From Dehalococcoidia bacterium (lineage in GTDB: Bacteria > Chloroflexota > Dehalococcoidia > GIF9 > UBA5629): a stretch of 64,000 nt of DNA. Each line of letters opens with the position of its first letter. Position 1 is the stretch's first letter. The notes beneath the pieces were generated by a model. The model worked only from the letters and a program-made list of their open reading frames with translations, was not told where the DNA came from and did not search any database. The position numbers and the translations under genes are program-made. Below, one piece after another: positions 10,663-47,306 of this stretch. The stretch lies in NCBI GenBank assembly GCA_016930155.1, contig JAFGHL010000093.1, positions 38,339-102,338 of the forward strand, read 5' to 3'.

Positions 10663-10706
10663 AATGGTCGGTCAGCGTGTATTGAGAATGCAAAAGGAGG
10701 TGAACA

Positions 10707-10973
10707 ATGCCCTACGGAAGAGGCTACGGAATGAGAGGAGGTTTCAGAGGAGCCTATGCTGCGTGGCCGTATATCGGCCGCGGGCGTGGAGGCCTTCCCA
10801 GGTGCGGGTATTACTTCGATTACCCGACTTACTATATGCCCGCTTATCAGGCTGAAGCGCCCGCTACCGCAAATTATGATCTGGGCGACCTGAAAAACAC
10901 CGTGGCCACCTTGAAAGAAAGGCTGGCACGGATGCAGGCAACGATCAGCGAGATAGAACGGCAGAGGTCTTAA
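10707..10973 (+). CDS. DUF5320-like small RG/Y-rich protein with a C-terminal coiled coil
   Basis: MPYGRGYGMRGGFRG...GGLPRCGYY with the tail LKNTVATLKERLARMQATISEIERQ. AGGAGG RBS. Confidence 0.7.
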   Translation: MPYGRGYGMRGGFRGAYAAWPYIGRGRGGLPRCGYYFDYPTYYMPAYQAEAPATANYDLGDLKNTVATLKERLARMQATISEIERQRS

Positions 10974-11036
10974 CCAGCCCAAATATTTTCACTTCCCACT
11001 ATTTCCTGAAAAAATAAAACCAAAGGAGGGTTTAAA

Positions 11037-11297
11037 ATGCCAGGATTTGATGGAACCGGGCCAAGGGGTCTTGGCCCCATGACAGGTGGAGGAAGGGGTT
11101 TTTGCGTAACACCGGCAGGCAATGTCGGCGCCTACGGGCGCGGCTTTGCATCCCGCGGCTACGGACCGGCTTATGGGCCGGTTTACCAGGCGCCTGCCAA
11201 TCAGCAGGAAATCGATCAGATTAGAAACGATTTTAACCAGTTGTTAAATGAGCTTCAAAATCTGGAGGCAAGGATCAATCAAATGGAGAAACGTTAA
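11037..11297 (+). CDS. DUF5320 family protein
   Basis: Canonical N-terminus MPGFDGTGPRGLGPMTGGGRGFC and a coiled-coil tail LLNELQNLEARINQMEK. AGGAGG RBS. Confidence 0.8.
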   Translation: MPGFDGTGPRGLGPMTGGGRGFCVTPAGNVGAYGRGFASRGYGPAYGPVYQAPANQQEIDQIRNDFNQLLNELQNLEARINQMEKR

Positions 11298-11345
11298 CCC
11301 GGGTATTGCCGGACGGGCTAAATAGACAGATAAAGGGGGTAAAAC

Positions 11346-11711
11346 ATGAAATTAGCAGTGACCGCCACCGGACCCGGTCTTGATGCCGATGTCGATCCGC
11401 GCTTCGGCAGGTGCAAATACTTCATTTTCGTTAACCCGGATACGCTGGAGTTTAAAGCAGTGGATAACACACCCGCCGGTGGAGGCGCCGGGATCGCCGC
11501 AGGCCAGCTTTTGGCATCACATGGGGCACAGGTATTGCTCACCGGTGATTGTGGTCCCAATGCCTATCAGGTCCTATCGGCGGCCAATATTCAGGTGATA
11601 ACCGGCATATCCGGCAAGGTTATGGACGCGATTAATGCGTACAAAGCCGGCCAATTCAAGGCCATCAGCCAGCCCAGCGTCCAGCCTCACCACGGTTTAA
11701 CTACTAAATAA
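11346..11711 (+). CDS. NifX/NifB-C-terminal-like (dinitrogenase FeMo-cofactor binding domain) protein
   Basis: MKLAVTATG...VDPRFGRCKYFIFVN...GAQVLLTGDCGPNAYQVL is typical of COG1433 proteins. Confidence 0.8.
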   Translation: MKLAVTATGPGLDADVDPRFGRCKYFIFVNPDTLEFKAVDNTPAGGGAGIAAGQLLASHGAQVLLTGDCGPNAYQVLSAANIQVITGISGKVMDAINAYKAGQFKAISQPSVQPHHGLTTK

Positions 11712-11746
11712 TACAGAGCATTGACTATTAATAAAGGAGGTTTATC

Positions 11747-11992
11747 ATGCCCAGAGGAGATATGACAGGACCGCCAGCCGGAGGCGGCAGAGGTGGAGGT
11801 CGCGGCGCCGGCCAGGGTGGAGGAGGCAGGGGAATGAGAAGCGGCGGCAGGATGGGTGGCAACCGTCCCGGAGCAGGGCCGGGCGGAGATTGCGTTTGCC
11901 CGAGCTGCGGCGCAAGAGCGCCGCACCAGGTAGGCCAGCCCTGCTACAGCATTAAATGCCCTAAATGCGGCGCCGCCATGGCGAGAGCATAG
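11747..11992 (+). CDS. DUF5320-like G/R-rich protein with a C-terminal Zn ribbon instead of a coiled coil
   Basis: MPRGDMTGPPAGGGRGGGRGAGQGGGGRG..., then CVCPSCG...CPKCG. AGGAGG RBS. Confidence 0.7.
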   Translation: MPRGDMTGPPAGGGRGGGRGAGQGGGGRGMRSGGRMGGNRPGAGPGGDCVCPSCGARAPHQVGQPCYSIKCPKCGAAMARA

Positions 11993-12835
11993 ATGATTAT
12001 ATCGGTTGCCAGCGGCAAGGGGGGAACGGGCAAGACACTGGTTGCCACCAGCCTTGCCCTTTCCCTCGGCAATACGTGCAGGGTTCAGTTGCTCGATTGT
12101 GACGTCGAGGAGCCCAACGACCACCTGTTTATCAGGCCTGTTATTACCGACCGCGAGACGGTCTGCATACCCGTGCCGAAGGTTGACTACAACAGGTGTA
12201 CTTTTTGCGGCGACTGCGCACGAATCTGCGCCTATAAGGCCATCGCCGTAGTGCCCAAAAGCGTTCTCGTGTTTGATCAGCTCTGCCACGGCTGCGGCGC
12301 CTGCAGCTACCTCTGCCCCGAAAAGGCTATCACGGAAGAGGGGCACGAAATCGGAGTGGTTGAGTCCGGCCGGGCCAATGGCATAGCGTTCGTCCAGGGC
12401 AGGTTGACCGTCGGCGAGGCCATGGCTACGCCGGTAATACGACGGGTCAAGACCAGGATCGATCACGCCGCAACAGCCATACTGGATGTGTCACCGGGCA
12501 CCTCCTGCCCCGTGGTAGAGGCTGTGCGGGACAGCGATTACTGCCTGCTCGTTACCGAACCCACCCCCTTTGGTCTGCACGACCTTGAGCTGGCGGTGCT
12601 AACGGTCAAACAATTGGGCATTCCCTGCGGCGTGATCGTCAACCGCGCTGTACCGGGAGAAGATATGGTGCAGTCTTACTGCTCCCGTGAAAATATTCCC
12701 GTTCTGCTTGAGATACCACTGGACAGGGATATCGCTCGCCTTTATTCGAATGGACAAACTCTGGCAGAGGGCATGCCTCAGTGGCAGGACAGGTTTAAAG
12801 ACGTTTACACCAGTATTACAAGGAGCCGTACATGA
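11993..12835 (+). CDS. MinD/ParA-superfamily P-loop ATPase with an inserted 2x[4Fe-4S] ferredoxin domain (COG1149-like)
   Basis: Deviant Walker A SGKGGTGKT. CTFCGDCARIC and CHGCGACSYLCP. Confidence 0.85.
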   Translation: MIISVASGKGGTGKTLVATSLALSLGNTCRVQLLDCDVEEPNDHLFIRPVITDRETVCIPVPKVDYNRCTFCGDCARICAYKAIAVVPKSVLVFDQLCHGCGACSYLCPEKAITEEGHEIGVVESGRANGIAFVQGRLTVGEAMATPVIRRVKTRIDHAATAILDVSPGTSCPVVEAVRDSDYCLLVTEPTPFGLHDLELAVLTVKQLGIPCGVIVNRAVPGEDMVQSYCSRENIPVLLEIPLDRDIARLYSNGQTLAEGMPQWQDRFKDVYTSITRSRT

Positions 12836-26439: not shown

Positions 26440-27633
26440 CTATTTAATCAGCCTGCGCGCCTCAGCCTCCACAGTCCTGTAAACATCTCTTAAAGGGACG
26501 CCCTTGCCGGCAGCTATCTTTTTGCATTCATCGTATTCAGGGGAGACACTGACAATTTCATCCTCGAAGCGTTTAACCTTTACCCTGACCTTGCCATAGC
26601 TCGATTCAAACTCGACGATATCGCGATCGGCGATGTGCCTGTACACAGGCCGGACCCTTATGCCCAGCGTTGACGTTTCGCGCATGATGGTTTCCGCCAG
26701 CTTCGACTCGGCATCAGCGGGGGAAAGCACGCTCATCATCACAGCCGGACGGTTCTTCTTCATCTGAATGTGTGTGAACCAGACATCCAGCGCGCCCTGC
26801 GCGAACAACCTCTCCATCACATAGTCGTAAATCTGCGGGTTCATATCGTCGATATTCGTCTCCAGCAGCACCATACTCTCATGACCGTTATGTTCAGACG
26901 ACTTCCCTATCCACAATCGCATGATATTGGGGTACTCATCTGCATTCATGCTGCCTGCGCCGTAGCCGACCTTTTCCAGGTTCAGCCCCGGCCGGCTAAA
27001 AGCAGCCAGCGTTGTTACGATTGCAGCGCCGGTGGGCGTCACCAGCTCCCTCCCCTGCATGGCAGCATGACAGGGTTTCACCACAGGCGCCTGCCTGCGG
27101 GCTATAAGTTCTATGGTAGCCGGCGCGGGCAAAGGCAGCGCGCCGTGGCGGCACTCGACCGAGCCTTCCGCCACAGGAAACGGCGACGCATAACTCCGAT
27201 TTATCCCCATTAGGCCCAACCCGATCACTGTTCCCACTATATCCACGATGGAATCCACCGATCCGATCTCGTGAAAGTGCACCAGCTCCAGCTTCGTCCC
27301 GTGGATTTTAGCCTCCACCTCTCCCATGTTACGAAAGATATCCAGCGCCTTTTTCTTTAATTCATCGCCCAGCCGGCTGCCTGCGATCAAATCCACTATA
27401 TCGCTGTAGGAGCGGTCGGGTTGCTTAACCCCTTCATCAAGTATGACCCTGGCCCATGTCGCTCTCAGGGCGCCTCTTTTGACCTTTTCAGCCGTGATCC
27501 TGTATCCCTCCAAAGGGAGCTTGGCCAGTTCTTTCTCAAGGTCCGCCCTGGGCAGCCCCGCATCCATCAATGCGCCCAGTATCATATCGCCGCTGCAGCC
27601 GGCGTAAAGGTCGAAATATGCTGTATTACCCAT
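26440..27633 (-). CDS. larC: Nickel-pincer cofactor biosynthesis protein LarC (nickel insertion; DUF111), uninterrupted
   Basis: N-terminus YFDLYAGCSGDMILGALMDAGL and HFHEIGSVDSIVDIVG. Confidence 0.9.
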   Translation of the reverse strand: MGNTAYFDLYAGCSGDMILGALMDAGLPRADLEKELAKLPLEGYRITAEKVKRGALRATWARVILDEGVKQPDRSYSDIVDLIAGSRLGDELKKKALDIFRNMGEVEAKIHGTKLELVHFHEIGSVDSIVDIVGTVIGLGLMGINRSYASPFPVAEGSVECRHGALPLPAPATIELIARRQAPVVKPCHAAMQGRELVTPTGAAIVTTLAAFSRPGLNLEKVGYGAGSMNADEYPNIMRLWIGKSSEHNGHESMVLLETNIDDMNPQIYDYVMERLFAQGALDVWFTHIQMKKNRPAVMMSVLSPADAESKLAETIMRETSTLGIRVRPVYRHIADRDIVEFESSYGKVRVKVKRFEDEIVSVSPEYDECKKIAAGKGVPLRDVYRTVEAEARRLIK

Positions 27634-27647
27634 TTGAATCCTTGCTT

Positions 27648-28481
27648 TCAGGCAGCCTGCCTGCTCATGCTTCCCATCTGGTAGCCTGTCAGATCGACGG
27701 TGATATGTTTGTAGCCGAGTTTCTTGAGAGCTTCGACGGCCGCCTGCCGGTTGTCCTTCTTTAACAGCGTAGCTAATCCTTTCTGATCGACCTCGATCCT
27801 GGCTATATTACGGTGGTGCCTCAGTCTGACATGCTCGATTCCCAGCCCTTTGATGAAGGCCTCTCCCGACGATACCTTACCTATCAGCTCGCGCGTGATG
27901 GGCATGCGATGGGGTATCCTGGTAGCAAGGCAGGCTATGGCCGGCTTCTTCCAGTTCGGCAGCCCCCTCTTTCTGGCCAGTGACCTGATCTCCTGCTTGG
28001 TCAGAAATGATTCCGCCAGCGGGCTGCGCACACCGAGCTCGGCTATGGCAACCAGGCCCGGACGAAAATCGCTGAGGTCATCGTAGTTGGTGCCATCGCA
28101 GACATATCTGATGTGCCTGGCGCGAGCCGTCTCATTCAAGATCCCAAGCATGTTCAACTTGCAATGGTAGCAACGGTCTTTGTTATTGACGGCAAAGTCC
28201 GGTATATCAAGCTGGTTGAACTCTACCACCATCAGCTTTAATCTGAGCCCGGACGCCAGCTTTTCAGCAGCATTGACCTCCCCGCCTTCCATCAGAGGCG
28301 ATTTGGCCAGCACGATCAGCACACTGCCTTTCAATATATCGGCGGCCGTTACAGCCAGGTACGTACTATCCACTCCCCCCGAATACGCTACAACAGCGGA
28401 ACCCATCCTGTCGATGATGCCCTCCAGATGGCCGACTTTGTCCGCGGTTTTGCTCTCAATATTCAATTTACGTGCTTTCAT
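27648..28481 (-). CDS. larE: LarE, an ATP-dependent sacrificial sulfur transferase (PP-loop ATPase)
   Basis: PP-loop VVAYSGGVDSTYL. The conserved Cys context in KKPAIACLATRIP. Confidence 0.85.
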   Translation of the reverse strand: MKARKLNIESKTADKVGHLEGIIDRMGSAVVAYSGGVDSTYLAVTAADILKGSVLIVLAKSPLMEGGEVNAAEKLASGLRLKLMVVEFNQLDIPDFAVNNKDRCYHCKLNMLGILNETARARHIRYVCDGTNYDDLSDFRPGLVAIAELGVRSPLAESFLTKQEIRSLARKRGLPNWKKPAIACLATRIPHRMPITRELIGKVSSGEAFIKGLGIEHVRLRHHRNIARIEVDQKGLATLLKKDNRQAAVEALKKLGYKHITVDLTGYQMGSMSRQAA

Positions 28482-29266
28482 CTATTGATCAGGCCGGCAA
28501 GATAGCCTGCATTGAATCCTCCATCGATATTGACCACGGCAATGCCCGGCGCGCAGCTGTTGAGCATGGTCAGCAACGGCGCAATGCCCTTGAAGCAGGC
28601 CCCGTAGCCGACGCTGGTGGGTACCGCTATGACGGGACAGGTCACCAGCCCGCCCAGCACTGCGGGAAGCACGCCATCCATACCGGCCACGGCGATGATC
28701 ACACTGGCGCTCCTGATCTGCTCCATATGATCGAAAAGACGGTGTATGCCGGCCACGCCTACATCGAAAATGCGCTCGACTTTATTGCCCATCATCTCGG
28801 CAGTGACTGCGGCCTCCTCGGCAACGGGTATATCCGCCGTACCTCCCGTTACAATCGTTATGCCCGGTTTGCCCGCCTTTTTCACCCTACTGTCTATGAT
28901 GACTGCGCGGGCGGCTGCGTTATATCTGGCGTCCGGCAAACTCTTCTTGACCGCCCTGAATGCATCGCCATCGACACGTGTAATCAACACCCTGCCCGAA
29001 TGCGCTGCCAGACTATTTGCAATGCTGACCAGTTGCTCACGGGTCTTGCCCGGCCCGAAGACTACCTCGGGAAAGCCCGTGCGCAGGCTGCGGTGGTGGT
29101 CGAGCTTGGCATGCATCATATCTTCGTAAGGCAGGACGCTTAGTTGACTGACTGCATCCTGCACAGACAACTCGCCAGACCTGACCTTCTTGAGCAAACC
29201 GGTCACCCATCGTTGACTAAACTTCTGTCCGCCCGACTTAGTCTCTTGATAATCGCCTTTTCTCAT
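28478..29266 (-). CDS. larB: LarB, a nicotinic acid adenine dinucleotide carboxylase/hydrolase (AIR-carboxylase-like)
   Basis: The C-terminal 262 aa of the 636-aa ORF. GITIVTGGTADIPVAEEA...IIAVAGMDGVLPAVLGGLV..PVIAVPTSVGYG. ATG at 29266-29264. Confidence 0.85.
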   Translation of the reverse strand: MRKGDYQETKSGGQKFSQRWVTGLLKKVRSGELSVQDAVSQLSVLPYEDMMHAKLDHHRSLRTGFPEVVFGPGKTREQLVSIANSLAAHSGRVLITRVDGDAFRAVKKSLPDARYNAAARAVIIDSRVKKAGKPGITIVTGGTADIPVAEEAAVTAEMMGNKVERIFDVGVAGIHRLFDHMEQIRSASVIIAVAGMDGVLPAVLGGLVTCPVIAVPTSVGYGACFKGIAPLLTMLNSCAPGIAVVNIDGGFNAGYLAGLINR

Positions 29267-29449
29267 CCATTTTCCCACGCAGAGCGTTATCGTAAGTATA
29301 ACGCAGCCAAAGATGCAGTACAATATGGACGCTGAAGCTGCGGTTAAACAATTTATACAAAAAGGTTGTTTTTTGTAACACCGTGGTTTAAAATGGTGGC
29401 GTCCGCCGCCTGCAAGGCCATCCGGCCAGGCGGATGAAGGGGGGTGAAA

Positions 29450-30793
29450 ATGAGCATACCTAAACTGAGCGACGAGAAGTATAAAGAAGTCATAGCTGCC
29501 TACGAGAAAAAGACCTCTAAATCCAAAAAACTGATCGAAGAATCCCGCAAATATATAGTACCCATGGGCGCACCCGCTTACATGATCTGGCACAGGCCCT
29601 ATCCTCTCTTTATCGACAACGCCAAAGGCTCCAGGCTGTACGACGTGGACGGCAATGAGTACATCGACATGTTCATAGACCAGGGCATTTCCTATATCGG
29701 ACATAAGGCGCCGGCCATCCGCAAGGCCATCGACAAGGCGCTGGATAAATACGGCTTCCACCTGGAGATGTGCGAGGAGCTTGCCACCAGGTGGGCGCAG
29801 AAGGTCATTCAGCATTATCCCTCCATCAAGAAGATCAAAATAGTCAACTCCGGCAACGAGGCCACCGAACTGGTCTGCCAGATCGCGAGGGCCTTCACCG
29901 GAAAAAACAAAATCATCAAATTCGCCGGACACCATCACGGCTGGAACGGCGTGCTGTCCTACGACGCGCTGGCGGCAGGATCGGGCACCCTTTTCACACT
30001 GGGCATACCCAACAACCACTGGGACAACCTGATCAACCTGCCGCCCAACGATATAGCTATCGTAGAGAAGGCTCTTCAGGATAACAAGGACGAGGTGGCG
30101 GCCGTCGTGCTGGAGCCGTTGGGCGCTTCCTCCGGGGCCAAGCCGCTCAACGAAGGTTTCCAGAAGCAATTGCGCGATCTCACGACAAAGTACAACGTGC
30201 TGCTGGCTTTCGACGAGGTGGCCACGAGCTTCAGAGTGGCCATCGGCGGCGCGCAGCAGGTGCTGGGTGTAACTCCGGACCTTACCTGCCTGGGCAAGCC
30301 GATCGGCGGCGGCCTTCCCATCGGAGCGGTGGGCGGGCGCGAGGACGTGATGTCGGTGGTGGGCGCGCTGGACCCCAGGGCCGAGCATTTCGGGCCGCTC
30401 TTCCCCATGGGCTCATTCTGCGCTCACCCGCTGGCCATGGCGGCCGGTATCGCCTTCATCGAGGAGCTCGAGAAAGGCAATTATATACAGAACTCCATCG
30501 ATCGAGCCGCCGACCTGGCCAGGCTGATCAACGAGGTAGCCGCCGGGCTCAAGATGGATGTCTCTGCCCATGCCATCTACAGTATCGTGCACTTCGGCCT
30601 TAACGGAAAGTTCGATATGAGCCAGGTATTGGAGGTCTACGAGTTCGACCTGATGATACGGCTGGCCCTGCTGCTGGGCGATCCGGGCCTGGTGGTGCTG
30701 CCCGGCCATGTTTATATGTCGGGCGTTATGACCGAGAAGGACATACAGAAAAGCCGTCAGGCTTTCGAGACGGCTTTCAGTATCTACAAATAG
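29450..30793 (+). CDS. Class III aminotransferase, a paralog of glutamate-1-semialdehyde aminomutase (HemL-like)
   Basis: IKFAGHHHGW and FDEVATSFRVAIGGAQ...DLTCLGKPIGGGLPIGAVGG, with the PLP lysine in LGK. Parallels the HemL encoded at 46014-47306. GTG at 29444 is an alternative start. Confidence 0.8.
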   Translation: MSIPKLSDEKYKEVIAAYEKKTSKSKKLIEESRKYIVPMGAPAYMIWHRPYPLFIDNAKGSRLYDVDGNEYIDMFIDQGISYIGHKAPAIRKAIDKALDKYGFHLEMCEELATRWAQKVIQHYPSIKKIKIVNSGNEATELVCQIARAFTGKNKIIKFAGHHHGWNGVLSYDALAAGSGTLFTLGIPNNHWDNLINLPPNDIAIVEKALQDNKDEVAAVVLEPLGASSGAKPLNEGFQKQLRDLTTKYNVLLAFDEVATSFRVAIGGAQQVLGVTPDLTCLGKPIGGGLPIGAVGGREDVMSVVGALDPRAEHFGPLFPMGSFCAHPLAMAAGIAFIEELEKGNYIQNSIDRAADLARLINEVAAGLKMDVSAHAIYSIVHFGLNGKFDMSQVLEVYEFDLMIRLALLLGDPGLVVLPGHVYMSGVMTEKDIQKSRQAFETAFSIYK

Positions 30794-30822
30794 TGACTAT
30801 AGAGACGTATTTTATCAGTCTG

Positions 30823-30850
30823 TTGACAGGGGTAACGGAAATTGTATAAT
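30823..30850 (+). promoter_or_regulatory. Promoter TTGACA-16 nt-TATAAT upstream of the APC permease gene
   Basis: Consensus hexamers read directly at 30823-30828 and 30845-30850. Confidence 0.55.
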
Positions 30851-30907
30851 GCCTTACCAGCTTTCATCCTAGGCTTATACAAATAAAACTGTTAGGAGAA
30901 GATAGGG

Positions 30908-32332
30908 ATGACAGAAGAAACACCGCAAGGTCAAGGCATACTCAGAAAAGAACTCACACTGGTGCTGCTGATCTTTCTCATGATCGGCCTCAACATAGGC
31001 GGCTCCCTGTTCACACTGACCAATGTCGCCGCGGGCCTGACCGGCCCATCGCTCATCATCGCGCAGATCATCTGCGCCATACCCGTTTTCCTGGCCATCA
31101 TACCCTACATGCTGCTGACCTCCATCGCGCCCAAGTCGGCGGCCAGCTACCAGTACGGCAAGCTCGCCTCCTATCCCATGGCAGTGGCGGGCGTGATCGT
31201 GCTGCTGGTGGCCATGCCGCTGGGCGGCCTGCCCCTGTTCGCCATCACCAACGGCCGCTTCATCATGATGCTGTTCCCGGATGCGCCCGCCATGGTGCCC
31301 GGCCTGGGCATATCGTGGGTGGTGCTGATCGCCATTATCACCATCACCATTTTTTACATCATCAACGTCGTGGGCATCAAGCCCTCTGCCTGGGTGCAGT
31401 TCGCCATGGTGTTCCTCCTGATCTCCGCCCTGCTGGCGTTCATTTTCGGAGGATTCCCCCAGATAGAATGGTCCAATTTTTCGAATATGTTCACGGGCAA
31501 CCTGAAATTCCCCGCTATGTCCCCCGTGCTGGGGCAGACGGTCGGCGTGATAGCGGCGGCGGCCATATGCTATACGCTGCTGGCCGGCGGTCTGTTCGGC
31601 ATCGAGCTGGGCGACGAGGTTAAAAAGGCCGGCGTCACCATACCGCGAGGATTGCTCATCGCCATCATCGGCGCTTTCGCCCTGACCTGGCTGGTCGAGA
31701 TTGTCGCCATCGGCGTCATGAACTGGGAACAGCTTGCCGCATCCAAGGACCTGGGCGCCGCGTGCAAACTGATCTTCGGCGCCAATTCGTTCTGGTTCTA
31801 TTACTTCATCATCGGCGGCGCCGTGATGGCCTGTATCTCCACCGTGCATGCTGTAATGACTATCGCCGGACGCTACGTCATGGCCTACGCCAATGACGGC
31901 TTCTTCCCCAGGTTCTTGGCCGATATCAACAAGCGCTGGGGCACGCCCCACTGGGGACTCACGCTGCCCTGGGCGCTGTGCGTGATCATGCTCTTGCTGG
32001 CCGGCGAAAGCCTCGGCATCTACGGGGCCATGCTCAACTTCGGCATGCTGTGGATGGTCACACTGGTATTGATCGCGGCTGCCCGGCTGCACAAGACGCA
32101 TCCCGAGGAGTTCAAGCTGTCGCAATTCAAGTTTAAACCGGGCCTGGTCTCCTTCGCTGCCATCACCGCCGCAGTTCTTAATATAATATTCATGCTGCTG
32201 CTGGTGGTCTTCCTGCTGATGCAGAAGGTCACCTGGCCGATCATACTGTTCGTTATCGCCATCATCGTCGGGCTGGGACTCTACTATATCCAGAAAGCGA
32301 GAAAGAAGGTCAAGCCGGCGACGCTTTTATAA
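30908..32332 (+). CDS. APC-superfamily amino acid/polyamine permease
   Basis: 474 aa, about 12 TM segments, and an N-terminal pattern typical of the APC family (LRKELTLVLLIFLMIGLNIGGSLF). Confidence 0.8.
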   Translation: MTEETPQGQGILRKELTLVLLIFLMIGLNIGGSLFTLTNVAAGLTGPSLIIAQIICAIPVFLAIIPYMLLTSIAPKSAASYQYGKLASYPMAVAGVIVLLVAMPLGGLPLFAITNGRFIMMLFPDAPAMVPGLGISWVVLIAIITITIFYIINVVGIKPSAWVQFAMVFLLISALLAFIFGGFPQIEWSNFSNMFTGNLKFPAMSPVLGQTVGVIAAAAICYTLLAGGLFGIELGDEVKKAGVTIPRGLLIAIIGAFALTWLVEIVAIGVMNWEQLAASKDLGAACKLIFGANSFWFYYFIIGGAVMACISTVHAVMTIAGRYVMAYANDGFFPRFLADINKRWGTPHWGLTLPWALCVIMLLLAGESLGIYGAMLNFGMLWMVTLVLIAAARLHKTHPEEFKLSQFKFKPGLVSFAAITAAVLNIIFMLLLVVFLLMQKVTWPIILFVIAIIVGLGLYYIQKARKKVKPATLL

Positions 32333-32362
32333 TCCGGTTTGAAATGGAGCAGCCAGGAAAAA

Positions 32363-33334
32363 ATGCCCGGAACTAAACGTATTGCCGTCATCGGGGCGGG
32401 CGTAATGGGCCCGGGTATCGCCATATCTTTCTCCCGCCACGGTTTCCCCGTTGCGCTGGCCGACATAGATCCCGCGGCCCTTGAGCGCGCAGAAACGAGC
32501 ATCCATTCAATGGCCTGTTTGTTCAATAGCAGTCCTGCTGCGGATAAAGACGGCGGTAAAGATATCGCGGCCGGGATAAGCCTGACTACATCGATAGAGG
32601 AGGCCACCACCAAAGCCGACTTTATCCTTGAGGCTGTCAAGGAGGAGCTGTCCGTTAAAAGCCGCGTGTTCGCCGAACTGGAGAAGGTCTGCCCGCCGCA
32701 CGCCATTCTGGCCAGTAACTCCTCGACGCTCTCCATCGATAGCATAGCGGAAAAGGTCTCTCATAAGGAGCGGACTATCCTGACACACTTTGTCAACCCG
32801 CCCGAGGTCATGCCCGTCGTGGAGGTGGCGCGCGGCAGCGCTACTTCGAATAAAACATACGCGGATACCGTAAACCTGATAAAGTTAATCGGCAAGAATG
32901 CTATTATCTGCGACAAGGTGGTACCCGGCTATCTGGTCAACTCGTTCAACATGGCCATCATGGCTGCAGCGCTCGATTTTCTGGGGAACGGGGTGGCCAC
33001 ACTGGAGGAGATCGATTTCGCCTTTACCCGCGGCCTGGGCCCGCGCCTGTCTATAATGGGACCTTTCAAGACCATGGACCTGATCGGCCTGGACCTGATC
33101 TGGCAGGCCGTTCTCAGCTTTGATCCCAACGCCCACAGCGATCCGCGCGCAGCACGCCTCCGCGAACTGGTGCAGGCAGGCCATTTCGGCATGAAAACGG
33201 GCAGGGGATTCTACGATTACGGCGGGCGCAGCCGTGACGAAGTAATGCAGGAGATCGATCGTCAACTTTTAGAGATCGTGACAAACCGTCCCGCCGGGAC
33301 GAAAGGAGGTACTCACACCCATGGGATTCAATAA
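32363..33334 (+). CDS. 3-hydroxyacyl-CoA dehydrogenase-family NAD-dependent dehydrogenase
   Basis: RIAVIGAGVMGPGIA Rossmann motif, SNSSTLSI, HFVNPP and the C-terminal GMKTGRGFYDY. TTG at 32339 is an alternative start. Confidence 0.8.
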   Translation: MPGTKRIAVIGAGVMGPGIAISFSRHGFPVALADIDPAALERAETSIHSMACLFNSSPAADKDGGKDIAAGISLTTSIEEATTKADFILEAVKEELSVKSRVFAELEKVCPPHAILASNSSTLSIDSIAEKVSHKERTILTHFVNPPEVMPVVEVARGSATSNKTYADTVNLIKLIGKNAIICDKVVPGYLVNSFNMAIMAAALDFLGNGVATLEEIDFAFTRGLGPRLSIMGPFKTMDLIGLDLIWQAVLSFDPNAHSDPRAARLRELVQAGHFGMKTGRGFYDYGGRSRDEVMQEIDRQLLEIVTNRPAGTKGGTHTHGIQ

Positions 33335-34355
33335 TATTTTAGTGGTCGGCGGCGGCGCCATCGGCGGCATCACCGCAGCGCTGCTGACCAAACAGGGATT
33401 GAACATTATAGTGCTGGACGCCGACAAAGAGCACGTCAAGCGGATGAACAGCGGCCTGGAGATAAGTGGCTTCAGAGAGACGACCGTTCCGGTCAAGGCC
33501 ATGCTGCCCGGCGACTTCGTCGGCGCACAAAACGCGGGCTGGGCCGATATCGTCCTGCTGGCGGTCAAGGGACTGCATACTGAAAATGCGCTGAAATCCG
33601 TATTACCTGTGATATCAAAGACTGCCCCGGTCGTATCGCTGCAGAACGGCATCAACGAGGAGACCATCTCCAAAGTCGTGGGCGTTGAACGCACCATCGC
33701 CTGCAGCATCACCTGGGGAAGCACCAACAAAGGGCCGGGCCAGCTAATGCAGACAACCGACGGCGGGTTCATCATCGGACAATGGCCGACCGGCAAAAGC
33801 AAGATCGTGGATGAAACAGCTACGCTGCTCTCTAAAGCATTCACCACCGAGGTTTCCGATAATATCATCGGGGACCGCTGGACCAAGCTGCTGATCACCG
33901 TCTCACTGACCGGGGTAGGCACCACGGCCGGGCTGACTTACGGAGGTGTGATAGAAAACGAGTCGGCCCGCAAGGTGGCGCTGACTGTGATCACCGAGAC
34001 CTACGACGTGGGCATCAAGGCGGGAGTCAAGTTCGCCGACCTGATGGGCGTGTCACCGTCCATCGTACTGGTGCGCAACAGGGAGGACTTTGAGAAGGCG
34101 TCCCAGTTGATGGAGATCGGGTTCGCCAACCATAAGGCCACCAAGCCATCCATGTGGCAGGATATCGAAAAAGGGCGCAAGACCGAAGTGGATTTCGTCA
34201 ACGGCTACGTGGTCAGGAAGGGCAAAGAGGTCGGTTTGAAAACGCCGGCCAACGAGCTGGTGACCAGAGTAATAAAGGAGATAGAGGACGGCAAAAGAAA
34301 ACCCTCCCTGGAGAATATCAAAGAATTCAACGGCATCACGGCTTATATTAAATAA
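33321..34355 (+). CDS. Ketopantoate reductase (PanE/ApbA) family oxidoreductase
   Basis: ILVVGGGAIGG, LLAVKGLHT, QNGI and the PSMWQDIEKGRKTEVDFVNG signature. AGGAGG RBS. Confidence 0.8.
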   Translation: MGFNNILVVGGGAIGGITAALLTKQGLNIIVLDADKEHVKRMNSGLEISGFRETTVPVKAMLPGDFVGAQNAGWADIVLLAVKGLHTENALKSVLPVISKTAPVVSLQNGINEETISKVVGVERTIACSITWGSTNKGPGQLMQTTDGGFIIGQWPTGKSKIVDETATLLSKAFTTEVSDNIIGDRWTKLLITVSLTGVGTTAGLTYGGVIENESARKVALTVITETYDVGIKAGVKFADLMGVSPSIVLVRNREDFEKASQLMEIGFANHKATKPSMWQDIEKGRKTEVDFVNGYVVRKGKEVGLKTPANELVTRVIKEIEDGKRKPSLENIKEFNGITAYIK

Positions 34356-34379
34356 ATGCATTAAGGAGGTATTTCATTC

Positions 34380-35303
34380 ATGGCAAAAAAGTTGATCATC
34401 CAGGTGGCGCCTTTCGGATCAAACACTCTACACGAAAATACACCAAACCTTCCCAACCTCGGCAAAAGGACGCCTTACCTGCCGATTACGCCTGAAGAGG
34501 TCGCAGAGGAGGCTCTTCGCTCATATAATGCGGGTGCAACCCTGTGTCATATCCATGCCAGGGACCCCGTACACATGCTGGCCACTCCTGATATCAAGGT
34601 CTGGGGTGACGTGGTGGCGCGCATACGGGAGAAGTGCCCGATATTAATCGAGGCCGGCGGCGGCATCGGCGCCTGGGTAGATACGACCACATGGCAGATC
34701 ATCCCGGCGTCCGAAGAACAGAAACTGGCACTGCTGGACATCAAGCCCGAGCCTGACATGCTTACGCTCAATATGGGCACGTTTGATATGTCGGTCGGCA
34801 AGTACGGTTTTTCCACTTTCAGCAATACCCCACCCTTCCAGAGGAAGATCATCAAGGGCATCCTGGAAAGGGGCTGGGGCATGGAACTGGAGATCTGGGA
34901 CGTAAGCCACCTGTACAATACCATGGCCCTGTGCGAGGAGGGGATATTCGACAAAGATATGGTCTTCCACATCGATTACCCTCTGGGTGTAGCCGGCGGC
35001 CAGCCCGCTACAGCCAAACAGCTTATGTATATCTCGGAAGAGGGCAAGAGGATGTTCCCCAATTCCAAGTGGCAGGCCCTGGGCATCGGCAAGGATGAAT
35101 TCCCCATGATCACGATGGCCATGCTGCTGGGCGCCGACAGCGTCCGGGTGGGCCTCGAAGATAACATCTATATTTCGCATGGCGAACTGGCTAAATCCAA
35201 CGCTGAACTGGTGGAAAAAGCGGTCAGAATCGCCCGCGAGCTGGATTTCGAGATCGCTACCGTGGAAGAAGCCAGGGAATTGCTTCACCTCAAGAAAAAA
35301 TAA
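34380..35303 (+). CDS. BKACE-family beta-keto acid cleavage enzyme (3-keto-5-aminohexanoate cleavage enzyme-like, DUF849)
   Basis: Zn-ligand motif CHIHARD, and VRVGLEDNIY. Length 307 aa. AGGAGG RBS. Confidence 0.85.
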   Translation: MAKKLIIQVAPFGSNTLHENTPNLPNLGKRTPYLPITPEEVAEEALRSYNAGATLCHIHARDPVHMLATPDIKVWGDVVARIREKCPILIEAGGGIGAWVDTTTWQIIPASEEQKLALLDIKPEPDMLTLNMGTFDMSVGKYGFSTFSNTPPFQRKIIKGILERGWGMELEIWDVSHLYNTMALCEEGIFDKDMVFHIDYPLGVAGGQPATAKQLMYISEEGKRMFPNSKWQALGIGKDEFPMITMAMLLGADSVRVGLEDNIYISHGELAKSNAELVEKAVRIARELDFEIATVEEARELLHLKKK

Positions 35304-35323
35304 ATAGAGATCGGAGGAGCAGG

Positions 35324-36619
35324 ATGGATAGTAAGCCAGCTATAAAGCGGTACCAGTTATCGTCATCTTCCCGGATGTACATATTCGTCCTGCTCTTCCT
35401 GCTTTATTTCTTCGACTACGTAGACCGCACCGTGGTCACCTCCCTCTTCCCCTTTATACAGAGAGACTGGGGCATCTCTGACGCTGAGTGCGGCATGCTG
35501 GTTTCAGCCGTCTACTGGTCCATCCTAATCTTCACCTTCCCCGTTTCCGTACTGGTAGACCGCTGGAGCCGCAAGAAGACTATTGGGTTAATGGCCGTGT
35601 TCTGGAGTCTGGCCACGGCGGCCTGCGCCTTCATGCCCAACTTCAAAGCACTCTTCGGCGCAAGGACCGCCATCGGCGTCGGCGAGGCGGGCTACGCCCC
35701 GGGCGGGTCCGCCATGATATCAGGGCTTTATCCCGAGGAGAAGCGTGCCCGCATGTTCGGCATCTGGAACGCCTCCATACCGCTGGGCAGCGCCGTAGGC
35801 ATCGCCCTGGGCGGCATCATCGCCAAGTCACTGGGATGGCAACACGCCTTCGGCCTGGTGGCCATACCCGGCCTGATCGTGGCCATCATGTTTTTCTTCG
35901 TAAAAGACTACAAAACCGTGGAACTGGTCAAAACGGTGGACGAAAGCAAGGGCGCAGGCAAGAAGAAAATGAGCTTCGGCGATATCAGCAGGGAGTTCCT
36001 TCAAACTCCGAGCCTGTGGTTCACATACCTTGGATTCGCCGCCGTCGTATTTGTAACCACCTCGATCATCACCTGGCTGCCGACCTACTTTTATCGTGCG
36101 GGTGGTATCGCTGAGGATCAGGCCGGCCTGCGTGCCAGCGCGATCATGGCGCTGGCAATCATCGGCGCGCCGCTGGGCGGCTTCCTGGCCGATCTATGGT
36201 ATAAGAAAGACCTGAGGGCCCGGCTGCTGTTCTGTGCCATATCCATCCTGATCACGGCAGTATTCGTTTATCTGGCGTTTTCATTTTTCGAAGGGATGTA
36301 CCAGTACCTCATGCTGCTGCTGGTAGGTATCGCCATCACCAGCTTCATCCCTGCCGCGCTGGCCGTCTGCCAGGACGTGGTGCACGCCGGGCTGCGCGCT
36401 ACTTCCGTGGCCCTGGCGGTTGTCATCCAGCACCTGCTGGGCTCATCGCTTGGCCCCATAGTAACAGGGGCTTTTTCCGACGCCTACGGCATACACACGG
36501 CCATGACATTTTTGCCCATTTACCTGATCGTCGCCGCAGCTCTCTTCTTCGCCGGCTCTTTCTTCTACAAGAAAGACTACGCCAAGGTGGAGAAAATAGA
36601 ACTCCAGATGGAATCCTGA
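35324..36619 (+). CDS. MFS transporter
   Basis: 431 aa with 12 predicted TM segments. MFS loop 2-3 motif LVDRWSRKKT. Confidence 0.8.
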   Translation: MDSKPAIKRYQLSSSSRMYIFVLLFLLYFFDYVDRTVVTSLFPFIQRDWGISDAECGMLVSAVYWSILIFTFPVSVLVDRWSRKKTIGLMAVFWSLATAACAFMPNFKALFGARTAIGVGEAGYAPGGSAMISGLYPEEKRARMFGIWNASIPLGSAVGIALGGIIAKSLGWQHAFGLVAIPGLIVAIMFFFVKDYKTVELVKTVDESKGAGKKKMSFGDISREFLQTPSLWFTYLGFAAVVFVTTSIITWLPTYFYRAGGIAEDQAGLRASAIMALAIIGAPLGGFLADLWYKKDLRARLLFCAISILITAVFVYLAFSFFEGMYQYLMLLLVGIAITSFIPAALAVCQDVVHAGLRATSVALAVVIQHLLGSSLGPIVTGAFSDAYGIHTAMTFLPIYLIVAAALFFAGSFFYKKDYAKVEKIELQMES

Positions 36620-36673: not shown

Positions 36674-36705
36674 ATTATATAGAATATTGCATATTTCTAT
36701 ATAAT
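36674..36705. promoter_or_regulatory. AT-rich inverted repeat ATTATATAGAA-10 nt-TTCTATATAAT upstream of the regulator/heme operon
   Basis: Perfect 11-nt arms read directly, about 60 nt upstream of the ATG at 36763. Confidence 0.55.
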
Positions 36706-45025: not shown

Positions 45026-46003
45026 ATGTCCGTATTTCCGGAATTACGTATGCGCAGACTGAGAAAAAGCCCGGCGCTGAGGTCGCTGGTGAGGGAAAGC
45101 CAGCTGGATGCCGGCGACCTCGTCTTCCCTCTGTTCGTCGTGGAAGGCAAAGCTATAAAGAGGGAGATCGATGCCATGCCCGGTATCTTCCATTTCTCCG
45201 TGGACAGGCTGGCCGCCGAGGTCGATGAATTGGTCCGGCTTAAAGTGCCCGCAGTGCTGCTATTCGGCGTGGTAGATAAGAAGGACGAGAGAGGCTCGGC
45301 CGCCCTTGATCCGAAAGGCGTTGTTCAGCGGGCCGTGCTGACCATAAAGAAAGCCGCCCCGCAGATGATAGTGATCACCGATATTTGCCTGTGTGAGTAC
45401 ACCGACCACGGGCATTGCGGACTCATAGCCGACGGAGATGTCGATAATGACAACACACTGCCGCTGCTGGCCGCGATGGCCCTTTCCCATGCTTCCTCCG
45501 GTGCTGATATGGTTGCCCCTTCAGACATGATGGACGGGCGGGTTATGACTATTAGAAAAGCGCTGGATGCCAACGGTTTCAGCCGCATACCGATATTGTC
45601 TTACGCGGCCAAATACGCCTCCGCCTTTTACGGGCCCTTCCGGGAGGCGGTGGGCTCAGCTCCCCGGTTCGGTGATCGCAGGTCCTACCAGATGGACCCT
45701 CCCAACGTGCGTGAGGCGCTCAGAGAGATAGAAGAGGACATCAAGGAGGGCGCCGATATCGTCATGGTCAAACCGGCGCTGGCGTACCTCGACGTTATCC
45801 GCCGGGCGCGGGACAGTTTCAATTGCCCGCTGGCTGCCTATAATGTGAGCGGCGAATATGCCATGGTCAAAGCCGCCGCCTCACGCGGATGGATCGATGG
45901 GAAAAAGGTCACTCTGGAGATACTCGGCTCCATCAAAAGGGCGGGAGCGGATATTATCATCAGCTACCATGCCAGGGAAGCCGCTGCATGGCTTGCCGCA
46001 TAG
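45026..46003 (+). CDS. hemB: Porphobilinogen synthase (delta-aminolevulinate dehydratase)
   Basis: RMRRLR, FPLFV, the Zn-site Cys pattern DICLCEYTDHGHCG, and MVKPALAYLD. Confidence 0.9.
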   Translation: MSVFPELRMRRLRKSPALRSLVRESQLDAGDLVFPLFVVEGKAIKREIDAMPGIFHFSVDRLAAEVDELVRLKVPAVLLFGVVDKKDERGSAALDPKGVVQRAVLTIKKAAPQMIVITDICLCEYTDHGHCGLIADGDVDNDNTLPLLAAMALSHASSGADMVAPSDMMDGRVMTIRKALDANGFSRIPILSYAAKYASAFYGPFREAVGSAPRFGDRRSYQMDPPNVREALREIEEDIKEGADIVMVKPALAYLDVIRRARDSFNCPLAAYNVSGEYAMVKAAASRGWIDGKKVTLEILGSIKRAGADIIISYHAREAAAWLAA

Positions 46004-46013
46004 ATATAATGAG

Positions 46014-47306
46014 ATGAGGACAACTAAAAATTCTGAGCGCCTGTTCAAACTTGCCCGGCGCTACCTGCCGGGAGGTGTGGACAGCCCGGTCAGGGCCTTT
46101 GGAGCCGTTGAAAGCATACCCCGCTTCATAGTTGAGGGCAACGGCTCAAAAATCCGTGATGCCGACGGCAACAGCTATATCGACTATGTCTGTTCCTGGG
46201 GTCCGCTGATACTGGGGCACGCAGAGCGGCGCATAGTCGAAGCATTGAGACACGCGGCGGGAAAGGGCACGAGCTTCGGAGCTGTCACGGAACTGGAGAC
46301 GCGGCTGGCTGCGATGATATGCAAAGCCTTGCCCTCAATGGAGATGGTGCGTTTCGTCAGCTCGGGTACCGAGGCAGCCATGAGCGCCATCCGCCTGGCC
46401 CGCGCTTTCACCGGCAGGGACAGGATCATCAAGTTCGCCGGATGCTATCACGGGCACTGCGATAGCCTGCTGGTCAGCGGCGGCTCCGGCATGGCCACGC
46501 TCGGCATACCTGACTCTCCCGGCGTGACAGCATCCACTGCCCGGGATACGCTGGTGGCCGGCTACAACGATCTGGACTCGGTGCGCAGGCTGTTCGCCGG
46601 GTATCCGGACAGTGTCGCCGCCGTTATAGTTGAGCCCATAGCCGCCAATATGGGTCTGGTGCATCCCGCCAGTGGCTTCCTTAGCGGCCTGCAGCGCCTG
46701 GCCAGGGCAAATGGAGCGCTGCTCATCTTCGATGAGGTCATAACCGGTTTTAGAGTAGCCTACGGCGGCGCCCAGCAGCTTTATAAAATAAGGCCGGATC
46801 TCACCTGCCTGGGGAAAATCATCGGAGGTGGCCTGCCGGTGGGCGCCTACGGGGGACGGCGTGACATCATGCAGATGGTTGCGCCGTCTGGAAAGGTTTA
46901 CCAGGCGGGCACACTCTCCGGCAACCCGCTGGCCGTGACTGCCGGTATAACCACACTCGAGATACTGAGAGACCCGTCCATCTATAAGCAGCTTGAGGAT
47001 AAGGGAGATCTCCTGCAGGAAGGGCTGGCCGCCTCCGCCTGCGACGCTTGCATGCCGCTGTCCATAGCACGCCAGGGATCTCTGCTCACCGTATTTTTCA
47101 GCGCACAGGCCATCACGGATTATACCGCCGCCCGCAGCTGCGACACGGCCGTCTTCGGGCGTTTCTTCAGGGGAATGCTGGAGCAGGGTATCTACTGGCC
47201 GCCCTCCCAGTTCGAAGCAGCCTTCCTGTCGCTGGCCCACAGCCGACAGGACATCTCCGTCACAGTCAAAGCAGCGCGACAGGTCCTCAAACAGATACAG
47301 GATTAA
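46014..47306 (+). CDS. hemL: Glutamate-1-semialdehyde 2,1-aminomutase
   Basis: LPGGVDSPVRAF, SWGPLILGH, FAGCYHGH, DEVITGFRV and LGKIIGGGLPVGAYGG. The internal ATG at 46014 lies just after the hemB stop. Confidence 0.9.
   Translation: MRTTKNSERLFKLARRYLPGGVDSPVRAFGAVESIPRFIVEGNGSKIRDADGNSYIDYVCSWGPLILGHAERRIVEALRHAAGKGTSFGAVTELETRLAAMICKALPSMEMVRFVSSGTEAAMSAIRLARAFTGRDRIIKFAGCYHGHCDSLLVSGGSGMATLGIPDSPGVTASTARDTLVAGYNDLDSVRRLFAGYPDSVAAVIVEPIAANMGLVHPASGFLSGLQRLARANGALLIFDEVITGFRVAYGGAQQLYKIRPDLTCLGKIIGGGLPVGAYGGRRDIMQMVAPSGKVYQAGTLSGNPLAVTAGITTLEILRDPSIYKQLEDKGDLLQEGLAASACDACMPLSIARQGSLLTVFFSAQAITDYTAARSCDTAVFGRFFRGMLEQGIYWPPSQFEAAFLSLAHSRQDISVTVKAARQVLKQIQD

Follow-up and report, generated by a model that had tools for sequence, protein, structure and literature searches.

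A stretch of 64,000 nucleotides from a Dehalococcoidia bacterium (the window) carries six neighbouring genes in which a BKACE enzyme is accompanied by an aminotransferase, two dehydrogenase-type proteins and two transporters. Which kind of compound would such a cluster handle, and do all six genes serve one pathway? The cluster probably imports a small amino or hydroxy acid, converts it to a beta-keto acid and splits this with acetyl-CoA; its enzymatic theme is known, its combination of genes is new.

Layout of the cluster and its transcription signals

All six genes were confirmed between positions 29450 and 36619 on the + strand, where the original prediction had placed them, and its motifs, gene overlap and promoter were each found correct when the locus was re-examined. 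The first gene (29450–30793) encodes a class III PLP aminotransferase (AT, or AT1; PF00202) with the motifs FAGHHHGW and LGKPIGGG. It is followed by an APC-superfamily permease of amino-acid type (30908–32332; PF13520, PF00324), a HADH-family gene (32339–33334; PF02737, PF00725), a PanE-like gene that overlaps the HADH gene by 14 nt (33321–34355; PF02558, PF08546), the BKACE gene (34380–35303; PF05853; motifs CHIHARD and GLEDN) and an MFS gene of the anion:cation symporter (D-galactonate transporter) type (35324–36619; PF07690). Upstream of the cluster are trehalose genes and a gene for an MscS-type channel.

A sigma-70-type promoter (TTGACA-16-TATAAT; 30823–30850, + strand), matching at 12/12 hexamer positions, is placed to drive APC-HADH-PanE-BKACE-MFS. 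It is the sole perfect match in the window (0 in 100 shuffles) and one of 16 across the 2.6-Mb genome, and almost every related locus keeps it, in front of either APC or PanE. The gene-to-gene gaps that follow it are 6, −14, 24 and 20 nt, and no terminator-like site was found on the + strand inside the cluster, including after AT. A perfect palindrome (TACAAAAA-N6-TTTTTGTA; 29356–29377, no strand assigned), which as an exact match is unique in the window and in the whole genome, falls in the best-conserved block of the larB-AT intergenic region among 14 related loci compared. It shares bases with the probable −35 region of the promoter of AT and may serve as the operator of some regulator. Given this separate promoter/operator region and the conserved strong promoter after AT, co-expression of AT with the remaining genes is not a given.

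Enzyme and transporter families

The BKACE protein matches PF05853 with 247.9 bits (gathering score 24.8), covering profile positions 1–274. The reference residues used were Kce E143 / BKACE15 E171 as catalytic Glu, together with Arg226 and Asp231, and their catalytic roles were taken from PMC11961710 and PMC10470551. The catalytic set is intact, with Zn ligands H57, H59 and E260, the base E171, and R256 and D261, each being the same residue in 110 or 111 of the 111 aligned homologues. An inactive G7-type enzyme (judged from the NetSyn description) was rejected, as all catalytic residues are present, and the originally proposed transporter-linked catabolic module around a BKACE, predicted from these residues to be functional, is supported. 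Kce Glu14, which binds the 5-amino group, corresponds to Asn15 in an alignment that uses a presumed sequence for residues 1–19 of Kce; TAL has Trp16 at this position. Kce Tyr145, which stands beside the catalytic Glu and is a proposed contact of the CoA sulfur, corresponds to Trp173, a position held by Trp in 29 and Tyr in 15 of 45 close homologues, and by Phe in BsfD and RaKce (bioRxiv 10.64898/2026.01.15.699783).

Every NCBIfam equivalog model scored below its cut-off (KCE, NF052387, 208/382 bits; TAL 175/430; 3-oxoadipate enzyme 147/350), and the best solved structures reach only about 125–143 bits; the protein falls outside any subfamily with a defined substrate. Identity as Kce was rejected on the KCE score, on Asn15 in place of Glu14 and on a cluster without kam or kdd genes. 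The polar Asn15 and bulky Trp173, together with the anion-type transporter, suggest a small polar C4–C7 acid over a fatty or aromatic substrate.

The aminotransferase scores 165 bits on PF00202 and, among solved structures, is closest to GSAM (226 bits), D-phenylglycine AT (201) and the Sphaerobacter beta/gamma-transaminase 6K8H (184), with VpAT (164) and MesAT (152) lower. Its Lys283, within LGKPIGGG, aligns with the Schiff-base lysine of GSAM. Its clade is compact, with identities of at least 50% inside and of at most 43% for the next sequences, and AT is assigned to a distinct subfamily of glutamate-1-semialdehyde-aminomutase-like class III PLP enzymes. HemL was rejected, with 264 bits on TIGR00713 against a cut-off of 527 and with the arginine of the GGVNSPVR motif replaced (GAPAYMIW); a genuine hemL, scoring 602 bits on this model, lies 15 kb downstream at 45858–47306.

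Counterparts of the N-terminal arginine are Ala for MesAT R54 (gap-free alignment), Ile for D-PhgAT R34 and Tyr for GSAM R32 (HMMER alignment), where R54 is presumably the arginine of the GGNTR motif, as placed by the chain offset. AT does not have this P-pocket arginine, which marks free-acid beta-transaminases of the MesAT/VpAT type, and the C-terminal 127 residues (the switching arginine region) gave no usable alignment to beta-transaminases. Lacking the carboxylate-binding Arg of MesAT, D-PhgAT and GSAM, AT may have a substrate other than a simple beta-amino acid. It shares the GSAM-like fold subgroup with MesAT, VpAT and StoTA (2YKU, 4AO9, 6K8H; 152–184 bits) and an HRP(F/Y)P motif with MesAT. 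Characterised GSAM-like aminotransferases, such as MesAT, VpAT, StoTA and Kat, are often beta-acting (PMC10589169; PMC3149608). Kat, for which a reference sequence was recovered from a metagenome contig via a published primer, scores similarly on the HemL model (271 bits) and has the carboxylate-binding Arg that AT lacks. Membership of Kat was defined by close relation to CLOAM0809, whose homologues share at least 60%, and by a lysine-fermentation context; AT was rejected as Kat, with 32% identity over 331 residues and no such context.

The PanE-like protein scores 189 bits on the TIGR00745 subfamily model (cut-off 141), belongs to a tight clade (at least 52% identity within, next at most 47%) and is classed as a ketopantoate-reductase (KPR)-family NAD(P) oxidoreductase. 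Its WTK (WTK189), PSMWQD (S277) and TEVD (E289) motifs align with those of solved KPRs, and Thr replaces Asn at K+4 and K+8, two KPR positions past the catalytic Lys; the roles of these residues (catalytic Lys, Glu and Ser, substrate-binding Asn) are presumably those of E. coli KPR. Pantothenate synthesis was rejected as its function, given that PanC was not found in the genome, PanB is present only as a 72-residue fragment and the substrate-binding Asn is replaced by Thr. To our knowledge, the characterised KPR-family enzymes all act on 2-oxo acids and none on 3-oxo acids. The HADH-family protein, one of nine such paralogues in the genome, has 3-hydroxybutyryl-CoA dehydrogenases as its best solved relatives (158 bits) and is below the cut-off of all NCBIfam models (best 211 vs 508), including those for carnitine dehydrogenase (105–114 bits vs 414–592). 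The MFS protein matches PF07690 with 203 bits and TIGR00893 with 192 (cut-off 395), and has at least 12 paralogues in the genome. The APC permease shows only 27–31% identity to perm2, another APC permease, which accompanies AT/BKACE elsewhere and takes the MFS position in L006 and L012.

A conserved core in modular architectures

Across a comparison set of about 35 related loci, the same gene order was found in about 20 species-level MAGs, far beyond chance, and the cluster is restricted to a single Dehalococcoidia family. The conserved core consists of the GSAM-like AT, the PanE-like protein, BKACE and a transporter, while APC and HADH form a variable two-gene insert downstream of the conserved internal promoter, the permease being absent from L002, L006, L007, L008, L014, L019 and L026. 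HADH and APC had been taken as integral members, with HADH as the dehydrogenase partner of BKACE; neither view holds, as many loci that are the same in other respects lack both genes and it is the PanE-like gene that travels with BKACE, adjoining it in 24/24 A- and C-type loci covering that position.

Three architectures were distinguished, and one BKACE clade (at least 64% identity) spans them all. The A-type (about 17 loci) reads AT-[APC-HADH]-PanE-BKACE-MFS or perm2; the B-type (L029/L030, L035/L036) reads AT-BKACE-amino-acid permease, without a dehydrogenase; and the C-type (L013, L015, L018) reads [HADH]-PanE-BKACE-MFS, without AT. Within the B-type, L029/L030 carry two ATs and L035/L036 are arranged MFS-AT-BKACE-permease. 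The A- and C-type BKACEs have identical pocket-loop residues (GS-NTLH), and Trp173 is common to the A-type, L013 and L015, with Tyr in L018. AT adjoins BKACE in unrelated contexts and orders (L029, L035; 63–65% identity), and the orthologous perm2 connects AT, BKACE and AT2 over six loci. An AT of 79% identity in L033/L034 is accompanied by a permease and another AT (AT2), and no BKACE was found in the 8 kb on either side of it. The distribution over A, B and C is the pattern expected if either AT or PanE can supply the keto acid; L035/L036 would suffice by themselves as a minimal route only if their beta-keto acid comes from AT.

Possible routes through the beta-keto acid

The modular architectures are fitted best by two entries, one for an amino and one for a hydroxy acid, that converge on a beta-keto acid cleaved by BKACE, a reading held tentatively and rated possible, short of probable. 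The MFS protein would import a 3-hydroxy acid as an anion, and the PanE-like enzyme would oxidise this anion to the 3-keto acid; a second, optional dehydrogenase would be the HADH-family enzyme. An APC permease would import the matching 3-amino acid, which AT would transaminate to that 3-keto acid or to a close relative of it. With acetyl-CoA, BKACE would then transfer the acyl part of the unstable beta-keto acid to CoA, giving acetoacetate and an acyl-CoA two carbons shorter, and AtoDA-type CoA-transferases encoded in the genome could activate the acetoacetate. Gene families, catalytic residues of BKACE, gene order, architectures and promoters are observed directly; the step order, the catabolic direction and the regiochemistry of both AT and the PanE-like protein are what we infer. 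The complete catalytic set of BKACE, the distribution over the three architectures, the likeness of A- and C-type BKACEs in the pocket loop, the beta-acting relatives of AT and the CoA-transferases argue for the two entries; against them are the missing carboxylate-binding Arg of AT, the action of characterised KPR-family enzymes on 2-oxo acids, the L033/L034 AT with no BKACE nearby and the strong promoter that splits AT from the other genes.

These last observations would also be expected of two independent syntenic units, in which promoter-[APC-HADH]-PanE-BKACE-MFS handles a hydroxy acid and AT, under its own operator, belongs to an unrelated amino-compound pathway. The conserved consensus promoter, the separate conserved palindrome of AT, the C-type loci without AT and the existence of AT-permease-AT2 without BKACE all point this way. 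Such independence is nonetheless quite improbable in view of the recurrent AT-BKACE adjacency in L029 and L035, the perm2 ties in six loci and the lack of a + strand terminator past AT. Slightly less doubtful, though still unlikely, is that AT acts after the cleavage: the PanE-like or HADH enzyme would oxidise an imported amino-hydroxy acid at C3, BKACE would yield acetoacetate and an aminoacyl-CoA, and AT would deaminate the thioester. Kat is itself a HemL-like class III AT that acts after Kce, on 3-aminobutyryl-CoA (PMC3149608), and its near-equal HemL-model score, the missing free-acid Arg of AT and the two-AT loci L029/L030, which would suit a diamino acid with one AT on either side of BKACE, are consistent with this order. 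However, AT is distant from Kat, which retains the Arg; Asn replaces the amino-binding Glu14 of Kce; the C-type loci have an identical BKACE pocket and no AT; and L035/L036 encode no enzyme that could introduce the keto group.

BKACE catalysis can proceed both ways (PMC10470551, PMC11961710), and the cluster might run in the biosynthetic direction, with BKACE joining an acyl-CoA and acetoacetate, AT aminating or PanE reducing the product, and MFS exporting a beta-amino or beta-hydroxy acid, e.g., as an osmolyte or building block. The two KamA-family aminomutase / ATP-grasp / GNAT operons of this organism, and the trehalose and channel genes upstream, would suit such a role. It is very unlikely, however, as uptake-type amino-acid permeases accompany the module in several architectures, the genome, as is typical of scavengers, holds numerous paralogues of uptake-type MFS genes and of dehydrogenase/BKACE pairs, and the cluster has no ligase or tailoring gene.

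The two-entry reading has partial counterparts among known systems. A GSAM-like enzyme beside a BKACE is closer to known pathways than originally stated: the alternative lysine fermentation of Candidatus Cloacimonas acidaminovorans (PMC3149608) likewise pairs a zinc BKACE (Kce) with a HemL-like, non-HemL class III AT (Kat), though AT is only 32% identical to Kat, and its products are acetoacetate and an acyl-CoA, as proposed here. Unlike that system, the window cluster lacks kamA, kamDE and kdd, has a KPR-like dehydrogenase instead of Kdd, and includes transporters. The carnitine and phloroglucinol routes, the latter with TfD/TAL of Clostridium scatologenes (PMC10470551), combine a HADH-family dehydrogenase with a BKACE (and MFS); they share with the present proposal the conversion of a 3-hydroxy to a 3-keto acid, cleavage with acetyl-CoA and an MFS gene in the cluster, whereas in the window the conserved dehydrogenase is of the KPR family, HADH is optional and an AT is part of the module.

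A transaminase-plus-cleavage logic has an older biochemical parallel. Beta-lysine degradation in Pseudomonas B4 (Barker laboratory, about 1979–81) reportedly uses an N6-acetyl-beta-lysine transaminase and then an acetyl-CoA-dependent 3-keto-6-acetamidohexanoate cleavage enzyme, taking a beta-amino acid through a beta-keto acid to acetoacetate and an acyl-CoA, and is said to need a second transaminase downstream, which the two-AT loci echo. We know of no genes assigned to that pathway. The window differs in having no acetyltransferase or deacetylase, and its PanE-like dehydrogenase would have no role there. That AT-BKACE-permease is the missing genetic basis of such a route for beta-lysine, N-acetyl-beta-lysine or beta-glutamate-type acids, with the PanE-like protein as the first KPR-family 3-hydroxy acid dehydrogenase, is distinctly improbable. 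If the beta-amino acid route were true, these sediment Dehalococcoidia could recycle their own beta-amino acid derivatives or eat beta-amino acid osmolytes released by neighbouring methanogens, gaining an acyl-CoA with no ATP spent. BKACE modules turn free keto acids into CoA esters without an ATP, CoA-transferase or CoA-ligase step, which is valuable to energy-limited anaerobes. Here, BKACE is paired with two subfamilies without a characterised member, an Arg-less GSAM-like PLP enzyme and a non-pantothenate KPR-like dehydrogenase. Knowing the substrate would give a function to three protein clades that carry the labels HemL, PanE and Kce in uncultured Dehalococcoidia and reveal the diet of these widespread sediment bacteria, and might fill in genes of beta-amino acid pathways that are still orphans.

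Elsewhere in the 2.6-Mb genome, CoA-transferase family I has 13 matches, nine of them strong, and this complement, several members being AtoDA-type, indicates that the organism can, by prediction, use acetoacetate. PF09043 (KamD) had no match in the genome, and the control genomes were likewise without a match. There are five BKACE modules in all, and one paralogue (C24) adjoins an SDR gene. The oxidative deoxyribonate pathway, in the part of its description drawn on here, proceeds by uptake of the hydroxy acid, C3 oxidation by an SDR dehydrogenase and BKACE cleavage to acetoacetate and a CoA ester (bioRxiv 10.1101/205583). As far as that part goes, it has no aminotransferase, unlike the window cluster with its KPR-family dehydrogenase and AT, and its arrangement is more closely resembled by C24 and the adjoining SDR gene.

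Organisation of the cluster and candidate control elements

The cluster lies in a Dehalococcoidia MAG of 2.6 Mb and comprises six co-directional genes on the + strand: a class III PLP-dependent aminotransferase (AT, 29450-30793), an APC permease (30908-32332; PF13520, PF00324), a dehydrogenase of the 3-hydroxyacyl-CoA dehydrogenase family (HADH, 32339-33334; PF02737, PF00725), a PanE/ApbA-like reductase (33321-34355), a BKACE enzyme (34380-35303; PF05853, 248 bits) and an MFS transporter of the anion:cation symporter type (35324-36619). All six genes of the original prediction were recovered, with every motif quoted for them, the 14 nt overlap between the HADH and PanE-like genes, and the promoter TTGACA-16-TATAAT (30823-30850, + strand). 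This promoter has no TGn extended -10 and is the sole perfect match in the window; there are 16 matches across the whole genome and none in 100 shuffled sequences. No terminator-like site was found on the + strand inside the cluster, nor any riboswitch or leader RNA of an Rfam family (no match at E < 0.9). In almost all related loci the consensus promoter is kept directly 5′ of the APC gene or, where that gene is missing, of the PanE-like gene. The unit thus reads promoter-[APC-HADH]-PanE-BKACE-transporter, with AT upstream of it behind its own region.

Upstream of AT is a perfect 8-6-8 palindrome, TACAAAAA-GGTTGT-TTTTTGTA (29356-29377). As TACAAAAA-N6-TTTTTGTA it is kept in 14 of the loci compared and has no second match in the genome, suggesting a candidate dedicated operator. 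The downstream flank is separate from the cluster and carries a MerR-like gene and an ahb/hem operon ending in a genuine hemL. The MerR-like gene is preceded by a different, AT-rich palindrome (ATTATATAGAA-N10-TTCTATATAAT, 36674-36705); nothing therefore points to a common regulator, and regulation of the cluster by this gene finds no support. The upstream flank is a separate, divergent larB-larE-larC unit (26440-29266). LarA-type genes (PF09861) elsewhere in the genome (C104:5454-6026, L042; C9:20645-21256, L043) provide potential user enzymes for it; since these exist, and since related loci without a dehydrogenase or without AT carry no lar genes, a functional link to the cluster was judged unlikely.

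Architectures of related loci

Scanning with each species represented by a single genome gave 26 loci, onto which the window proteins were mapped, and more distant clade members were found by identity-based look-ups. Lake sediment and peat are among the sources of the related MAGs. The window-type arrangement (A-type) occurs in about 17 Dehalococcoidia MAGs as a six-gene form and as a four-gene form, AT-PanE-BKACE-transporter, without APC and HADH (e.g., loci L002, L006-L008, L019 and L026). The two coexist in one genus with BKACE identities of 93-97%, and two loci (L003, L020) keep APC and have no HADH. The 3′ transporter is exchangeable, being the MFS of the window, an MFS 55-65% identical to it, or a distinct APC-type permease, perm2 (L006, L012). 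In L014, from a long-read MAG (G225:C10), the AT of the window-type copy is frameshifted, its PanE match is shortened and a TAA lies within its BKACE gene, reflecting either decay or an assembly error; a second PanE-BKACE copy in that genome (L015) is intact.

Loci of a second kind have AT, BKACE and an amino-acid permease, and no dehydrogenase (B-type). L029/L030 read AT-BKACE-perm2-AT2 with two SCFA-type transporters (BKACE 65% and AT 64% identity), L035/L036 read MFS-AT-BKACE-perm2, and L016 reads BKACE-perm2-AT2. AT-less loci (C-type; L013, L015, L018) read [HADH]-PanE-BKACE-MFS or PanE-PanE-BKACE, and L013 and L015 are second copies in genomes that also carry the window type. From these gene contents, the partners of BKACE are AT with an amino-acid permease, PanE with an MFS, or both. 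As a correction to the original prediction, the core partner of BKACE is the PanE-like enzyme, which adjoins it in 24 of the 24 A- and C-type loci covering that position.

The perm2 permeases (L006:8980-10389, L012:7836-9239, L016:1283-2692, L029:8016-9362, L033:9399-10802, L035:10116-11459) are orthologous, with 52-85% identity among themselves and only 27-31% to the APC permease of the window. They accompany AT, BKACE and AT2 in differing gene orders and stand in for the MFS in some window-type loci. AT2 (L029:9397-10755, L033:10820-12178) is a second clade of GSAM-like aminotransferases, 62% identical between these two loci and 31-36% identical to AT. Like AT, it has no N-terminal arginine (motif PDGGGGDMQCY), and it always adjoins perm2. 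In L015, a fused aconitase-X-family gene (10397-12199) lies 3′ of HADH-PanE-BKACE-MFS, between MFS genes, and a Crp-like regulator is found upstream.

Predicted properties of the enzymes

Alignment of the window BKACE to Kce (2Y7D) and BsfD (9ZSC) places its Zn ligands at H57, H59 and E260 (Kce H46, H48 and E230) and its base at E171 (Kce E143), and retains the conserved residues R256 and D261 (Kce R226 and D231). Where Kce has Glu14 the window enzyme has Asn15, a position within the first 19 residues of Kce, for which the alignment used a presumed Kce sequence. Mutagenesis of BKACE15 established the base at the Kce E143 position (PMC11961710), and Kce Glu14 contacts the 5-amino group of the substrate (PMC10470551). 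The loop following strand 1 exceeds that of Kce by about 10 residues, and Tyr145 of Kce is replaced by Trp173, a position that is Trp in 29 and Tyr in 15 of 45 close homologues. A- and C-type BKACEs have in common the N-terminal pocket loop GS-NTLH. Trp173 is found in the A-type and in the C-type enzymes of L013 and L015, while L018 has Tyr. B-type enzymes have Val or Leu in the pocket loop (L029, L035) and Tyr at position 173 in all three cases (L029, L035, L016). The enzyme scores below every curated equivalog cut-off, with 208 vs 382 for Kce, 175 vs 430 for TAL and 147 vs 350 for the 3-oxoadipate enzyme. A Kce identity in lysine fermentation was rejected on its score, the absence of Glu14 and the absence of kam/kdd neighbours; a KamD search of the genome gave no match, but neither did control genomes. 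The TAL, 3-oxoadipate and carnitine routes were likewise rejected, every curated model being far under its cut-off.

AT belongs to a GSAM-like subgroup and is not HemL, scoring 264 bits on the HemL model (cut-off 527), compared with 602 bits for the true hemL of the window. That AT might serve the neighbouring ahb heme operon as an additional HemL was rejected on this score and the missing motif Arg; in addition, the real hemL closes that operon and B-type loci have no heme genes. Near the N-terminus, VPMGAPAYMIWHRPYPLF matches MPGGNTRSILFHRPFPLV of MesAT in an ungapped alignment and has Ala at the carboxylate-binding R54. The position of D-PhgAT R34 is Ile, and that of GSAM R32 is Tyr (HMMER alignment). 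The C-terminal region gave no usable alignment to beta-transaminases. The AT clade is sharply bounded, with at least 50% identity within and at most 43% outside.

The PanE-like clade is also sharply bounded. The window protein scores above the cut-off of the KPR subfamily model and retains the motifs with Lys, Ser and Glu, but has Thr in place of two Asn after Lys. PanC was not found in the genome and PanB only as a fragment, so a housekeeping PanE function in pantothenate synthesis was judged unlikely, with a remote chance at best. The same holds for a pantothenate, beta-alanine or malonate-semialdehyde reading of the cluster, since PanC is absent and there is no amidase. Distant PanE homologues, including Thermoplasmata forms of ~530 residues, had uninformative gene contexts. 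The nearest relatives of HADH are 3-hydroxybutyryl-CoA dehydrogenases (158 bits), and HADH itself scores below all curated cut-offs.

Proposed route, alternatives and lineage context

Given the modular architectures, AT and the PanE-like enzyme are most simply explained as alternative makers of the BKACE substrate. AT would supply it from an amino compound and the PanE-like enzyme from a hydroxy compound, and the six-gene form would bring in one more permease and one more dehydrogenase. The MFS-AT-BKACE-permease loci (L035/L036) make sense only if the keto group is created by AT. Three points count against this model: AT lacks the arginine of free-acid beta-transaminases, the known KPR enzymes act at C2 rather than C3, and one close AT (L033/L034, 79% identity; AT-perm2-AT2) has no BKACE within 8 kb upstream or downstream.

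The main rival is that AT acts after BKACE, on its aminoacyl-CoA product, as in the Kat/Kce precedent, where a GSAM-like aminotransferase also lies beside a BKACE. That precedent corrects the original prediction that such a combination matches no familiar pathway; the interpretation given there is supported in part. The sequence of Kat (CLOAM0809) was obtained from a metagenome contig via the published forward primer, and its end matches the reverse primer. Kat has the arginine and is only 32% identical to AT, which was rejected as its orthologue. The Kat-type step order also fails on loci without a dehydrogenase and on loci without AT. It is possible, at lower odds, that AT and the BKACE unit are merely neighbours, or that the cluster runs in a biosynthetic direction.

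Candidate substrates are of the beta-lysine or beta-glutamate type, or small, polar acids with a hydroxy or amino group. N-acetyl-beta-lysine is a common osmolyte of methanogens from similar habitats (PMC12776343, PMC9128505), and a link to the substrate of the cluster is speculative. Two copies of an operon (C13:6660-10424, L061; C102:13931-17702, L062) encode a KamA-family 2,3-aminomutase, two D-Ala-D-Ala-ligase-like ATP-grasp proteins and a GNAT. The organism itself probably produces a derivative of a beta-amino acid, and the product of this operon may be a beta-amino acid peptide or osmolyte. The KamA-family protein scores 472 bits on the AblA model (cut-off 525) and 425 on that of Glu-2,3-aminomutase (cut-off 650).

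In all, the genome holds five BKACE genes with differing sets of partners, unusually many modules for 2.6 Mb. Around the four further paralogues (C17:3035-4057, C45:21403-22329, C34:3170-4042, C24:138-926), one set each has an enoyl-CoA hydratase; a CoA-transferase together with an acyl-CoA dehydrogenase and a protein resembling 4-hydroxybutyryl-CoA dehydratase; an HADH-family enzyme, a B12-binding protein and an MFS; and an SDR and an epimerase. There are also nine HADH paralogues, at least 12 ACS-type MFS and thirteen CoA-transferase family I matches, nine of them strong. The cluster is a lineage-restricted variant of the BKACE catabolic theme. Within the genus, 15 of 17 genomes have an orthologue of this BKACE; within the family, 21 of 77 genomes do, representing 5 of 25 genera, and in the class as a whole, sampled evenly, it occurs in only one of 142 genera.
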